DNA of 64,000 nucleotides from an uncultured Candidatus Peribacteria bacterium (GCA_964466635.1 CAYXNG010000001.1:42958-106957), one strand, 5' to 3'; numbered from the stretch's first letter, positions 14,409-62,864 are shown. The notes: a model not told the origin generated them from the letters alone. Program-made: numbers and translations.

Positions 14409-15767
14409 TTACGCAGTATATCCCGCCTCCTCAGCTTCAGCCTCGGTGGCAAAGTACACCCGCTTGTCGGCCTTGATTTTCTTGCCTGCCGCAGTATCGA
14501 TTGCGTAGAACTTCTTGCCGTCCTTGGAGGCGACGAAGTTCATGCCTTCAGGAACCTCGACTGCCTCGTCGGCATCATCGGACTCTCCGGCTTCTTTTTT
14601 CTTTGCCTCTTCCTCCTCCTGTTCCTTCTTGATGCGTTCAAGTGTCTCTTTGTCGATCGGCTGGAGGGCCTTGATCGACAGACCGATGCGACGCTCGTCG
14701 ATATCGATGTTGATCACCTGGGCCTCGATCTTCTGGCCGATGGTCAGCACTTCGGACGGATCGTTCACCTTGTGGTGTGCGATTTCGGACAGGTGGACCA
14801 GTCCGTTGATGTCTTTCTCCAGGCGGAGGAATGCGCCGTAGTCTGCAAAGCGGACGACGGTTCCGGAGACTTTCTTGCCCAGCGGATAGCGCTCGGCAAC
14901 TTCTTCCCACGGATCCTGCGTCAGCTGCTTGATGGACAGGGACAGCTTGTCGCCGTCGACGCCGATCACTTTGACGGTGACGCGGTCGCCGAGCTCGGCG
15001 TATTCCGACGGATTCTTGACGTGACCCCATGCGATTTCCGAGATGTGTACCAGTCCTTCCAAGCCGTCGAAGGTGACGAACAAACCGAACTTCACCAAGC
15101 CCGAGACGACGCCTTCCTTCACGTCGCCGATCTTCAGTCCTTCGAGTGCCTTTGCGCGTTCCTCGGCCATCGCATCGCGCTCCGATACCACGATCTTGCC
15201 CGCCTCTTCATCCATTGTGACGATCTTCACCGTGAAGGTGTGACCGACGAACTTCGACAGACGCGTGATGATCTCGGTCGACTCGGCGTTGTTGACGCGC
15301 GGATAGTTGACCGGAGCCAGCTGGCTGACCGGGAGGAAGGCGCGGATACCGTCGATGTTGGCGATGAGTCCGCCCTTATTGGCTTCCTGAGCAGTGAACT
15401 TCATTGTCTTGTCGCCCTCGACCAGCTTGTGGAAGCGATCCCAGGCCTTCTTCTGGCTGGCCATGCGGAGGCTCAGCACAACGAGACCTTCGTCATTTTC
15501 GTCTTCCAGCACCAGAGCCGATACCTCGTCGCCGGGGTTGAGCTCCTTGAAGGTGTTGAAGGAATCGCGCAGCTCGCGTCCGGAAATGATGCCGGTAGCG
15601 ACACCGCGGATATCGAGCAGAAGCTTATTTTTTCCTTTAAAGACGACGATGCCGTCAATCAATTCGCCCGGCTTGGAGCGGAAGATTTCTGGGGATTTCT
15701 TGATCAGCTCGTCCATCAAGGCATTCGAGCTCGCCTTTTTTCCTTTCTGTGCGGTTTTTGCAGACAT
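14409..15767 (-). CDS. rpsA: 30S ribosomal protein S1
   Basis: 452 aa with repeated S1 OB-fold domains (GxVxG..V....G.FV pattern about 5 times), followed by an acidic linker and a short C-terminal extension. Confidence 0.85.
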   Translation of the reverse strand: MSAKTAQKGKKASSNALMDELIKKSPEIFRSKPGELIDGIVVFKGKNKLLLDIRGVATGIISGRELRDSFNTFKELNPGDEVSALVLEDENDEGLVVLSLRMASQKKAWDRFHKLVEGDKTMKFTAQEANKGGLIANIDGIRAFLPVSQLAPVNYPRVNNAESTEIITRLSKFVGHTFTVKIVTMDEEAGKIVVSERDAMAEERAKALEGLKIGDVKEGVVSGLVKFGLFVTFDGLEGLVHISEIAWGHVKNPSEYAELGDRVTVKVIGVDGDKLSLSIKQLTQDPWEEVAERYPLGKKVSGTVVRFADYGAFLRLEKDINGLVHLSEIAHHKVNDPSEVLTIGQKIEAQVINIDIDERRIGLSIKALQPIDKETLERIKKEQEEEEAKKKEAGESDDADEAVEVPEGMNFVASKDGKKFYAIDTAAGKKIKADKRVYFATEAEAEEAGYTA

Positions 15768-29323: not shown

Positions 29324-29572
29324 TTATTTTTTGATGAGTGATTCTTTTTTCTCTTTTTCCCACGTCTTCACCTCTGCCTCTCTTTTGCGCGCATCCGAAA
29401 GCGTCTCGAATTCCTCGGTATAGATAATCGACACCGGTCGTTTGCTGCGGGTGTATTTAGCGCCGGTACCATCGTTATGTTTGGCTTCGCGCTCCGCTAC
29501 GTTGATGCAGGTTCCTGCATAGAGCGAACCGTCGCTACACCGTGCTAAATAGAAGAAATGCGCCATCAACAA
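29324..29572 (-). CDS. GIY-YIG nuclease family protein (UPF0213/YhbQ-like)
   Basis: 82 aa. The segment FFYLARCSDGSLYAGTCINVAEREAKHNDGTGAKYTRSKRPVSIIYTEEF..ARKREAEVKTW matches the GIY-YIG pattern. Confidence 0.8.
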   Translation of the reverse strand: MLMAHFFYLARCSDGSLYAGTCINVAEREAKHNDGTGAKYTRSKRPVSIIYTEEFETLSDARKREAEVKTWEKEKKESLIKK

Positions 29573-30477: not shown

Positions 30478-30553
30478 TGGTGGGTCGGGCGGGACTTGAA
30501 CCCGCGACCAAAGGCTTAAAAGGCCTCTGCTCTACCGACTGAGCTACCGACCC
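30478..30553 (-). tRNA. tRNA-Lys(TTT)
   Basis: Hand-folded: acceptor GGGTCGG/CCGACCC, anticodon loop CTTTTAA, T-loop TTCAAGT, encoded CCA. Confidence 0.9.
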
Positions 30554-30609
30554 AAAATGTGAACCGAGTGAATGCTCAACTCACTCGACGAGCTTAATTG
30601 TTTTCTTTT

Positions 30610-30651
30610 CGGTTCCGCAAGCGGAACCGGGGCGACTGAGCTACCGACCCA
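30610..30651 (-). pseudogene. tRNA-Lys 5' fragment (through D-loop G18) fused to a CUUG-capped hairpin
   Basis: 19 nt at 30633-30651 are identical to 30536-30554 of the intact gene. On the tRNA strand they are followed by ccc and the hairpin cggttccgCTTGcggaaccg (30610-30629). Confidence 0.65.
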
Positions 30652-49483: not shown

Positions 49484-50218
49484 TTAAAGGGACGAACGGA
49501 TAACGGCTGCGATCTCCGTCGCTTTATCACGATGGACGCGATGACGCACACCCTGATACAGGTGTAGCCGACTGTCGGCTATGCCTTTGTGCATGACATA
49601 TGCATCGCTGACCGGCGTCATGCCGTCCTCGGTTCCCCAGAAAATATCGGTCGGCGTTTTGATGAACGGGAGAATCGGGCGCAGGTCCTCGTGGACAACC
49701 CGGCTCATCGTATCGCGCATGATGGGCGATGCTTTTTCGTAATCGTGCACGCGGACAAGTTTGTACAGGAGCTTCTTGGCAACCGGCTGCAGCTGTTTGA
49801 GGCCGGGAATCGCGAGTAAGAACTTGCCGGTCTTCGCGAGCATCAATCCAAACATCCGTTTGAAGTGTCGTGGATGACGAATACCCGCCGCAGCACAGAG
49901 ATAGAGATGTTTGATAGGGAGTGATCCGCGTGCTGCAAGCTTGAGCCCGATGCGACCGCCATGAGAATGACCTAAGAGATGTAAAGCTTCTGGCCTCTGG
50001 CCTCTGGCCTCTAGATAGTGCTCAACCCAGTCAGCGTAGTCATCTACTGTCCATGGCGTCTTCGGTTCCGGCTCATCGCCAAAGCCCGGGAGATCCGGTG
50101 TCAGAATCTCGATATCGGTGCCTTTGAGTGCTTCTCGGAGCTCGGTAAACGATTCCTTGGAACCGCCCCAACCGTGCAAACAGAGCAGTATGGGCTTCAT
50201 AGGGCTAGTGTACAGCAA
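49484..50218 (-). CDS. alpha/beta-fold hydrolase
   Basis: The motifs LCLHGWGGSKESF and the nucleophile elbow GHSHGG are present. It contains the in-frame heptamer insert at 49985-50014 (LEARGQRPEAL). Confidence 0.8.
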   Translation of the reverse strand: MLYTSPMKPILLCLHGWGGSKESFTELREALKGTDIEILTPDLPGFGDEPEPKTPWTVDDYADWVEHYLEARGQRPEALHLLGHSHGGRIGLKLAARGSLPIKHLYLCAAAGIRHPRHFKRMFGLMLAKTGKFLLAIPGLKQLQPVAKKLLYKLVRVHDYEKASPIMRDTMSRVVHEDLRPILPFIKTPTDIFWGTEDGMTPVSDAYVMHKGIADSRLHLYQGVRHRVHRDKATEIAAVIRSSL

Positions 50219-50277
50219 AACTGGCTAGAAGCGTCTTGTTCTATACGGGTCTTTTGGATACCCTTTGCAGGCTTTAA

Positions 50278-50320
50278 ATATGTCACGGTAGCTCAGTAGG
50301 CCTAGCCTCGCTTGCGAGGC
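50278..50320 (+). pseudogene. tRNA-Met 5' fragment (through D-loop G19) fused to a CUUG-capped hairpin
   Basis: 23 nt at 50278-50300 are identical to 50371-50393. They are followed by cctag and the hairpin gcctcgCTTGcgaggc (50305-50320). Confidence 0.65.
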
Positions 50321-50374
50321 GTTAGGAAACAACTAACCGCGACATTAGAATCTTTTACAGCTTCAAGGCCATAT

Positions 50375-50451
50375 GTCACGGTAGCTCAGTAGGTTAGAGC
50401 GCGGGACTCATAAGCCCGAGGTCGCCGGTTCAATTCCGGCCCGTGACACCA
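50375..50451 (+). tRNA. tRNA-Met(CAT), elongator-type (Ile2/lysidine not excluded)
   Basis: Hand-folded: acceptor GTCACGG/CCGTGAC with a G1-C72 pair, anticodon loop CTCATAA, T-loop TTCAATT, CCA. Confidence 0.85.
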
Positions 50452-50467
50452 CATAAGGTTTTCAGAA

Positions 50468-51058
50468 TCAATGCCACCACCACGGTACATCCTGAGGTGG
50501 TGTTTTATCGTACCCCTTGAGTAATTCCGTATGTTGCTTCAGATATTCTTTTGCCCAATCTTGTATCAATACATCTCGCCGAGTCAGATAACCAACTGGC
50601 GGAGGGGGATCAAGAATTTGTTTCTTGTACAAGGATTGGTAGATACCACCCATCACATCCACATTCTGAGATGTGACATCTTGGAAAATATATGGTGCAA
50701 GGAATTCCTTCTCGCCATGAGTTAATTCATGTAATGCCTTTTCTCGTCCTGCTTTTTGCAGAATTGGAGTACTTCGCACTTCAGGTGGTCTGTGTTGCCT
50801 AGTCTGAACACTTGTTTCAACTTCTTTTTTAGAAACCGTTTCAGGCTTAATCGTTATTTCTGTCTTAGGAGAAACAAAAAGTAGAGTTATAGAAAGAATA
50901 ATGGCTGCACCAAGAACAGTATAGTAAGACCCTATTCCTTGTGATCCAATAAAGGGAACTGAAAAAACAGCAACAAGCATTAGTACCCCAAGGCAAACAA
51001 AAGCTCTAGCTAACGGAGGTAAAGTCAGTACATATTTAACTGCAAATTCAGGAACCAT
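50468..51058 (-). CDS. hypothetical membrane protein in an AT-rich patch
   Basis: 196 aa with two N-terminal TM helices. No family recognised. It lies immediately 3' of tRNA-Met. Confidence 0.45.
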   Translation of the reverse strand: MVPEFAVKYVLTLPPLARAFVCLGVLMLVAVFSVPFIGSQGIGSYYTVLGAAIILSITLLFVSPKTEITIKPETVSKKEVETSVQTRQHRPPEVRSTPILQKAGREKALHELTHGEKEFLAPYIFQDVTSQNVDVMGGIYQSLYKKQILDPPPPVGYLTRRDVLIQDWAKEYLKQHTELLKGYDKTPPQDVPWWWH

Positions 51059-51097
51059 TGACTTAGAGACTATCAGGATTTAATCCTCCAATTCAAT

Positions 51098-62658: not shown

Positions 62659-62735
62659 GGGCGACTAGCTCAGCTGGTTAGAGCGCGACACTGATAATGT
62701 CGAGGTCGGCAGTTCAAGTCTGCCGTCGCCCACCA
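62659..62735 (+). tRNA. tRNA-Ile(GAT)
   Basis: Hand-folded: acceptor GGGCGAC/GTCGCCC, anticodon loop CTGATAA, T-loop TTCAAGT, CCA. Confidence 0.9.
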
Positions 62736-62753: not shown

Positions 62754-62864
62754 CGACTAGCTCAGCTGGCCCTGTTTCGCTTGCGAAACAGTATCAATAA
62801 GCGCGACAACTGCGTAGCACTGATACTGTCGAGGTCGGCAGTTCAAGTCTGCCGTCGCCCACCA
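62754..62864 (+). pseudogene. tRNA-Ile-like second copy interrupted in the D-loop by a CUUG-capped hairpin insert
   Basis: It shares cgactagctcagctgg and the last 38 nt with the intact copy. It lacks the first three acceptor nucleotides. A 30-nt insert follows the GG (ccctgtttcgCTTGcgaaacagtatcaata) and about 11 extra nt lie before the anticodon loop. Confidence 0.6.

Follow-up and report, generated by a model that had tools for sequence, protein, structure and literature searches.

The locus at 50278-50451 raises the question of why an intact tRNA gene should be preceded by a broken duplicate of its own 5′ end. It lies in the window, a 64,000-nt stretch of DNA from an uncultured Candidatus Peribacteria bacterium (GCA_964466635.1 CAYXNG010000001.1:42958-106957), whose genome, here called G000, comprises 0.93 Mb in 55 contigs and is 83% complete; other G numbers denote relatives. 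The initial annotation described a 23-nt duplicate of the start of a tRNA-Met gene that ends at the D-loop GG, runs into a CUUG hairpin and is followed, after a spacer of about 50 nt, by the gene itself. Indeed, positions 50278-50300 and 50371-50393 are identical (23/23, spacing 93 nt) and constitute the only direct-repeat family within 50150-50520. The 23-mer occurs at these two sites only in the window, even with up to three mismatches allowed, and 0/100 shuffles gave a match. ARAGORN and Rfam agree on a 77-nt tRNA(CAU) with an encoded CCA at 50375-50451 (Rfam tRNA score, 70.3 bits), and the repeat therefore consists of 4 nt of leader and tRNA nucleotides 1-19, the upstream copy of which (50282-50300) is a dead stub.

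Read 5′ to 3′ on the plus strand, the locus begins with a promoter-like block, P1 (50236-50264; TTGTTC, 17 nt, TACCCT), which is conserved among relatives and lies upstream of the stub. We infer that P1 is the native promoter; a strict consensus promoter scan makes no call at the locus, P1 included. The stub breaks at G18/G19 of the D-loop, as first described, and abuts a hairpin “plug” that we assign to subfamily b (50301-50326; CCTA-GCCTCG-CTTG-CGAGGC-(GT)-TAGG; predicted fold, -13.8 kcal/mol). The hairpin is slightly longer than originally outlined: to the inner stem GCCTCG/CGAGGC (50305-50310/50315-50320), which encloses the CTTG loop (50311-50314), the fold adds an outer stem CCTA/TAGG (50301-50304/50323-50326), with a GU bulge in the 3′ side. 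Next come an A-rich linker and the position of a GCTCGGT motif (here AACCGCGAC), at the end of which (50327-50343) the conserved element core stops, as delimited by a covariance model, R1. A second leader (50344-50374) contains a -10-like TAGAAT (50346-50351) and a boxA-like CTTTTACAGCTTCAAGG, and its last 4 nt fall within the direct repeat. Altogether, 48 nt separate the hairpin from the tRNA, close to the length first given, and the roughly 70 nt between the repeats hold no ORF. The neighbouring genes encode a hydrolase and a Mur ligase.

No intrinsic terminator features were found at the locus: the hairpin is accompanied by an A-rich stretch in place of a U-tract, and a scan calls no terminator-like sites. 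We also discarded the idea that the hairpin is a general terminator of this organism, as long-stem CUUG hairpins are almost exclusively tRNA-linked and have no U-tract. The Rfam tRNA model does not match the stub plus insert, and a search of the locus and eight related loci against Rfam 15 (E ≤ 1) returned only the tRNA and an antisense artefact of the plastid trnI region. The latter is a match of the reverse strand of the tRNA (50375-50451) to the Plastid-ycf2 5′UTR family, below threshold at 35 bits. Because that family overlaps plastid trnI-CAU, the tRNA may be a lysidine-type tRNA-Ile2 and not an elongator tRNA-Met. Of the original tRNA-Met label, the CAU anticodon is confirmed by ARAGORN; the anticodon is the whole basis of “Met”, and elongator identity does not follow from it. 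The initiator tRNA sits on another contig of G000.

The orthologous site in related species tells a more varied story than the tRNA itself, which is identical at 77/77 positions in G006, G003, G002 and G001. G006 carries an identical unit, and G001 has the same hairpin and linker (43/44) behind a stub with two substitutions, with a diverged leader. In G002 and G003 the site is empty: the conserved P1 block, 'ttggctaccctttgcaggc', lies directly upstream of the tRNA, which begins some 20 nt further on. Since the tRNA of these empty-site species begins at the position of the stub, the stub marks the original gene start. The second leader of G000 resembles the single leader of the empty-site species, and 22/33 of its positions are shared between G000 and G001. 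G004 holds a different module with a hairpin of subfamily a. The upstream block 'ttgg(a/c)taccctttgcaggc' is conserved in G000, G006, G001, G002 and G003. A site that is empty, filled or differently filled within one genus is more indicative of an insertion element than of a fixed processing signal. Because the Mur ligase of G003 is closer to that of G000 (79% identity) than is that of G001 (64%), the empty site of G003 is a secondary loss or an allele replacement. G000 and G006 are 100% identical over about 290 nt (50163-50451), spanning the hydrolase start, the intergenic block, the stub, the element and the tRNA, against 83% in the flanking genes, which suggests a recent exchange of the whole allele between species at a recombination-prone tRNA locus.

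Directly 3′ of the tRNA (50452-51087), the two genomes are unrelated for about 640 nt. An AT-rich gene of unknown function had been noted here; the gene is present as a convergent ORF on the minus strand (50468-51058), and its 196-aa product is a membrane protein with a weak Pfam match to SieB (superinfection exclusion; 27.6 bits, cut-off 26). By appearance, the segment is a small islet of variable content adjoining the 3′ end of the tRNA.

The unit is not confined to this site. R1, built from 11 units and comprising the 5′ half of the D-arm, the hairpin, the A-rich linker and the GCTCGGT motif, matches the locus at 50289-50343 (65.1 bits) and two further places in the window. One is the tRNA-Lys(UUU) locus on the minus strand (30478-30651), where the same architecture had already been noticed and is confirmed: a stub of tRNA nucleotides 1-18 with the element core (30587-30650; 70.9 bits) lies upstream of the tRNA (30478-30553). 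The other, on the plus strand (62754-62864; 53.3 bits), is a nearly whole pseudo-copy of tRNA-Ile(GAU) behind the intact tRNA-Ile (62659-62735), made up of nucleotides 4-19, a CUUG hairpin and the remainder of the tRNA with an 11-nt insert. Across G000, a stub and CUUG hairpin precede 6 of the 34 detected tRNA genes (Ala-UGC, Lys-UUU, the CAU tRNA of this locus, Lys-CUU, Ser-GGA and Val-UAC), always as the gene's own nucleotides 1-15/19, a G(CUUG)C hairpin, 44-60 nt and the intact gene, at offsets of 78-105 nt. Behind the Ile-GAU and Thr-GGU genes, nearly whole pseudo-copies carry the hairpin at the same D-loop position, and stub units and hairpin-interrupted copies together involve about a quarter of the tRNA genes of G000. 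The Thr-CGU, Trp and fMet genes are followed by 3′ fragments. Elsewhere in G000, G(CTTG)C hairpins with stems of at least 6 bp are hardly found outside tRNA-linked sites.

Recurrence at other tRNA genes, which the initial annotation had made a test of its claim, extends from the genome to the family. All eight modelled stem pairs of R1 covary with double changes among the 11 units, a score reached by 0/500 shuffles, and 58 copies were aligned in total. In most of the approximately 100 genera of Candidatus Peribacteraceae the model gives strong matches, with 1-18 copies per genome, amounting to hundreds of copies beyond G000, and other families of the class yielded only marginal matches (E ~ 1e-3). 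The host tRNAs in the family are Lys, Met/CAU, Thr, Trp, Ala, Val, Arg, Asp, Asn, Ile, Pro and His. Among members of the genus to which G000 belongs, G007 and, effectively, G005 have no copies, and the highest number is 10. Each of three hairpin subfamilies is found at different tRNAs and in different genera: G004 has an identical hairpin at tRNA-Trp and tRNA-Met, tRNA-Ile(UAU) was filled independently with subfamily c in G002 and with another type in G004, and the tRNA-Lys(CUU) module of G000 is of a type unlike that of G006 and G003. Tandem arrays with a 95-100-nt period are present in several genomes, and in G081 two adjacent units have unrelated stems and stubs that both match the tRNA at 18/18 positions. 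We found no published description of the stub-hairpin element in the literature searched, which included the Peribacteria genome paper.

The extent of the duplication was measured in 40 units upstream of intact genes. Exact identity reaches 0 nt upstream of tRNA position +1 in 11 units, 1 nt in 7, 2 nt in 6, 3 nt in 2, 4 nt in 2 and 5 nt in 3; single units extend by 6, 7, 9, 11, 21 and 28 nt, and extensions are longer still inside tandem arrays. Beyond the exact extension the leaders are near random, and identity usually stops 0-3 nt from +1. Two clean, young cases show the arrangement at its simplest, namely tRNA-Ile(UAU) in G002, with a 40-nt repeat, a 59-nt insert and a 40-nt repeat, and a 46-nt repeat in G008. 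The stubs agree with their own tRNA at 711/720 positions. Free drift of the fragment in close relatives had been named as counter-evidence to the original claim; some drift is seen in G001, where 2 of 19 stub positions differ, but with stubs overall 98.75% identical to their tRNAs it is not the rule. Neighbouring unconstrained sequence seems to change faster than the stubs do. The hairpin-plus-linker core of orthologous pairs is 74-98% identical (43/44, 42/43 and 39/45), against 40-67% for tails and flanks; between G000 and G001, the hairpin and the next segment agree at 43/44 positions and the flanks at 47-67%. One orthologous pair has a wholly replaced hairpin with compensating arms.

Two readings of the spacer and tail were rejected. 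Alignment at six loci did not support a decayed remainder of the same tRNA (p = 0.03-0.66 versus shuffles). A pseudo-acceptor stem, formed by a complement of stub nucleotides 1-7 in the tail, is matched by CCGCGAC at the present locus, but 38 units showed no enrichment.

The explanation that we favour, with a probability of about 0.5, is that the locus is one copy (subfamily b) of a multi-copy, ORF-less insertion element that is specific to Candidatus Peribacteraceae and lands in the D-loops of tRNA genes, between G18/G19 and the next base. A unit starts with a P1-type block and a dead stub (nucleotides 1-18/19); a GC hairpin whose loop is G(CUUG)C comes next, then an A-rich linker and a GCTCGGT-type motif, and a leader-like tail runs up to the complete tRNA. 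The module is thus lineage-specific, multi-copy, non-coding and tied to the D-loop position, and the intact gene always lies beside it. The 5′ part of the gene flanks about 70 nt of foreign sequence on both sides, and the gene survives; units have been gained, lost, replaced by another hairpin subfamily and amplified in tandem, and have passed between species within identical blocks. Insertion would duplicate the target over lengths varying between 18 and about 46 nt. Only duplications reaching back to +1 would leave a working gene, so that viability would select for them; the frequent start of identity at +1, or just ahead of it, would find its explanation here. The tRNA would then be made by read-through from the old promoter and RNase P cleavage, possibly helped by the promoter-like and boxA-like sequences in the element tail. 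Our best guess for the mover is a structure-specific nuclease or recombinase that would recognise the hairpin and an extruded D-arm of the tRNA gene, followed by repair synthesis; we know of no precedent among bacterial transposases for target duplications of 18-46 nt. Two features sit less easily with this explanation. A simple staggered cut does not account for whole pseudo-copies behind an intact gene. Conservation of the core in place, together with near-perfect stubs, would be unexpected for a purely selfish, immobile copy and is unexplained by a dead selfish insert. Because of this conservation, we keep alive both a cis-regulatory explanation and one in which homing needs perfect arms.

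The cis-regulatory explanation takes the module to be a host leader, that is, a tandem promoter and leader for the tRNA kept by selection, with the stub as a by-product, or else an RNA hairpin that insulates or stabilises the precursor. In its proposed layout, which matches that of tRNA promoters and leaders in this lineage, the loop and 3′ arm supply a -35-like TTGCGN, and an A-rich spacer leads on to a -10-like TAnGCT; behind this lie a CGGTYGG discriminator and a leader of boxA-like type. The slow change of the core relative to its flanks is what such selection would leave; the loop TTG and the motif GCT are 16-18 nt apart in 32/54 copies; and the native promoter of tRNA-Ala is built alike (TTGCGA, 16 nt, TATCCT, then CGGTCGGT). 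The element tails carry motifs of the TTCCTTCCAC/CTTTTACAGC type that resemble the GCTC(C/A)TTCACAGCATCG of 16S leaders in the family, the comparison with boxA being one of sequence likeness, and the predicted fold of a 190-nt precursor (50262-50451) consists of a leader structure of its own and a normal cloverleaf (z = -2.5). That P1 is still conserved in the filled species also counts in favour. Against this explanation, the module is missing from the orthologous site in G002 and G003, altogether from the congener G007 and effectively from G005, and varies from 0 to 18 copies per genome. The hairpin sequence is moreover freely replaceable, just one copy in four or so carries the key A at position 2 of the putative -10, the strict scans call neither promoter nor terminator at the locus, and the same hairpin sits inside whole dead tRNA copies, where a promoter would be needless. 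We consider host regulation a doubtful contender. Comparable doubt attaches to a structure-directed insertion that would read the tRNA gene as an extruded cloverleaf, with cuts in the D-loop and at the base of the acceptor stem. The duplicated piece would span approximately +1 to G18/G19, the GC hairpin cassette would serve as a handle, and the enzyme would lie outside the reverse transcriptase, Y1 transposase and TnpB families; stub and hairpin would stay intact because only copies with perfect arms keep spreading between alleles and species. We hold this version tentatively.

The search for a mover bears on the remaining explanations. Reverse transcriptase (RVT_1, PF00078) and Y1_Tnp (PF01797) are absent from G000 and most element-rich genomes, and both are commoner in element-free genomes; TnpB (PF07282) is absent from 23/23 genomes tested. 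Mobilisation by IS200/IS605, RAYT or TnpB was rejected on these grounds, the genes being absent or anticorrelated with the element. An unlikely candidate is provided by the small GIY-YIG nuclease cassettes that invade tRNA genes in bacteria of the candidate phyla radiation: the element could be an ORF-less miniature of such a cassette, with the hairpin as its handle, moved in trans by GIY-YIG nucleases that the same genome encodes as free-standing genes. Cleavage of single-stranded DNA beside cognate hairpin repeats is known for GIY-YIG enzymes of the Ssn family (PMC11893778), and by this analogy the link is no more than a reasonable hypothesis. Every family genome tested has 3-12 small GIY-YIG ORFs, approximately 11 of 30 inspected adjoin tRNA genes, and G000 has six matches, one of them inside the tRNA-fMet locus. 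There, on contig C26 (6787-7088), an 84-aa GIY-YIG ORF lies between tRNA-fMet and a hairpin-plugged 3′ fragment of it, a duplicate of nucleotides 29-39 and 48-77 whose anticodon arm has partly given way to a TCCCGC-ATTC-GCGGGA hairpin. The arrangement is a nuclease cassette lodged in a tRNA gene of the same genome. Similarly, a GIY-YIG ORF of G132 ends inside tRNA-Pro, with hairpin-plugged pseudo-copies on its flanks. Against a direct connection, no examined unit of the element family has an ORF between hairpin and tRNA, none of 30 GIY-YIG loci carries a CUUG-type hairpin (their flanks carry other hairpins), small GIY-YIG ORFs average about 4.6 in element-rich and about 7.5 in element-free genomes, and an unrelated gene stands between tRNA-Lys and the GIY-YIG gene of the window (29324-29572). 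An origin at the RNA level, in which a 5′ tRNA fragment cut in the exposed D-loop would be joined to a hairpin RNA, copied into DNA and recombined beside the gene, fits the identity that begins 0-2 nt from the mature 5′ end in 24/40 units and always ends in a loop of the folded tRNA, as well as the further inserts at anticodon-loop and T-loop positions of whole pseudo-copies. It is nevertheless very unlikely, given the absence of reverse transcriptase just described, the smooth decay of repeat lengths upstream of +1 without a peak confined to RNA ends, and the several repeats that span 5-28 nt of leader. Finally, the repeat might be the collapsed remnant of an attachment-site duplication, dating from a genomic island or prophage with an integrase; this view is close to refuted. 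The tRNA genes here are island targets, as the SieB-like ORF and unrelated sequence 3′ of tRNA(CAU) illustrate, and tRNA 3′-end duplicates exist at tRNA-Trp and tRNA-fMet, but the duplicate in question is a tRNA 5′ end broken in the D-loop, only about 70 nt separate the repeats, one hairpin design recurs at a dozen different tRNAs with each stub matching its own tRNA, and no integrase adjoins the locus.

Several observations on GIY-YIG genes and promoter motifs stand apart from this weighing. The window ORF (29324-29572, minus strand) is free-standing, encodes 82 aa (Pfam E = 1.7e-14) and lies 0.9 kb from tRNA-Lys, with a Ser-rich secreted-protein gene on the opposite strand between them. Among 23 family genomes, element abundance is inverse to that of reverse transcriptase, Y1 transposase and small GIY-YIG ORFs, a pattern that may reflect lineage or competition for tRNA sites. 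In the tRNA trailers of relatives (L012, L021, L029, L055, L057, L089 and L104), another module stands right after the CCA, consisting of TTCGACTC, a hairpin and then CTCATGGCAAGCCAT, often upstream of a GIY-YIG ORF. Homogenisation of the kind seen in diversity-generating retroelements was discarded, since the differences in the stubs show no adenine specificity and reverse transcriptase is lacking. As for motifs, nnnGCT was rejected as a -10 hexamer, the spacing being suitable and the hexamer poorly conserved, and GCTCGGT was rejected as a genome-wide promoter motif (17 matches versus 29 expected, one of them at a tRNA). The G000 assembly contains no rRNA genes, and the 16S leaders of relatives (L114-L118) were therefore used; they carry one to three copies of GCTC(C/A)TTCACAGCATCG. 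Many tRNA genes of G000 have motifs of the GCTCTTT(A)/TTCACATCA type 5-20 nt upstream, which may be boxA-like antitermination signals.

tRNA genes are classic landing sites for mobile DNA, and the known invaders use the 3′ half and carry an integrase. The attL/attR repeats of tyrosine integrases resemble the present arrangement in that foreign DNA is bordered by a direct repeat of part of a tRNA gene, of which a whole copy survives; they derive, however, from the 3′ part of the tRNA, with crossover in the anticodon loop, T-loop or 3′ end, and bound kilobases that include the integrase, whereas the element repeat is the 5′ 18-19 nt, breaks in the D-loop, bounds about 70 nt of non-coding sequence and has a stub taken from the element's own host tRNA. 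Like REP/BIME sequences, Rickettsia palindromic elements, mitochondrial GC clusters, double-hairpin elements and the repetitive hairpin-forming elements of sponges, the element is a short, ORF-less, GC-rich hairpin in many copies (58 aligned, up to 18 per genome, as befits a MITE or REP), its stems covary and its distribution among relatives is patchy. REP-type and other miniature hairpin repeats are scattered over intergenic and coding regions with short target duplications or none. The element differs from them in being tied to one tRNA-gene position with an 18-46-nt duplicate of the gene start; its repeats are not of a fixed short length but range between 18 and about 46 nt, the D-loop being their constant end point, and no RAYT/Y1 transposase accompanies it, unlike REP. 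Free-standing homing endonuclease cassettes make “gene hybrids”, examples being SegB in the tRNA cluster of phage T4 and mobile endonuclease ORFs in fungal mitochondria. Here too selfish DNA would enter an essential gene and leave a displaced dead fragment beside a reconstituted working gene, but those cassettes encode a nuclease and bring a foreign replacement, whereas the element is ORF-less and the regenerated part is a local duplicate. Archaeal non-canonical tRNA introns (bulge-helix-bulge) and split tRNAs interrupt the sole functional copy and are spliced out. The introns likewise place extra sequence at tRNA loop positions, the D-loop included; in our case, however, a complete, uninterrupted gene lies beside the interrupted piece, and removal of the insert restores no tRNA. 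The Ssn/SRM system shares genome-wide, oriented hairpin repeats and small single-domain GIY-YIG genes in the same genomes. SRM repeats flank nuclease genes and are not tRNA-specific (PMC11893778); the element hairpins, in contrast, do not lie beside GIY-YIG genes, and their sequences fail the NTS consensus. An integron attC-like site was also considered, GTTAGG in subfamily b resembling the core site, and was rejected on inspection because the cassette boundaries misfit.

What sets the element apart from invaders of the 3′ half is thus a module of about 70 nt, non-coding and placed at the D-loop, which has colonised up to 18 tRNA genes per genome in otherwise streamlined genomes of approximately 1 Mb. 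The stubs it leaves are dead and promoter-proximal, and within one genus it turns over from species to species. Should it move by itself, it would point to an unrecognised targeting or recombination activity; if it is kept by the host, it would represent a new kind of tRNA leader element. In either case, the tRNA-like fragments and tandem repeats will confuse tRNA annotation, the calling of island boundaries and assembly in Peribacteria MAGs.

Further tRNA-linked repeats of other designs were encountered. On contig C38 (3780-4000), a 109-nt repeat stands twice in tandem behind tRNA-Trp, and both copies close with the last 20 nt of the tRNA. On contig C8, tRNA-Pro(CGG) (15526-15602) has a decayed pseudo-copy upstream, in which CGGGAT and a 26-nt insert are followed by GCTCAGTTGG and GCGCGCCG..., and at this site G006 has an extra subfamily-c hairpin unit with a 64-nt repeat. 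Lastly, pseudo-copies of tRNA-Thr(GGU) in G000 (contig C43, 4489-4680) and of tRNA-Thr(CGU) in G002 (L073) have in common a homologous T-arm insert of about 70 nt (ctcccag.cgcaagctctcgaa.gcga...), which is a second element family aimed at a tRNA loop.
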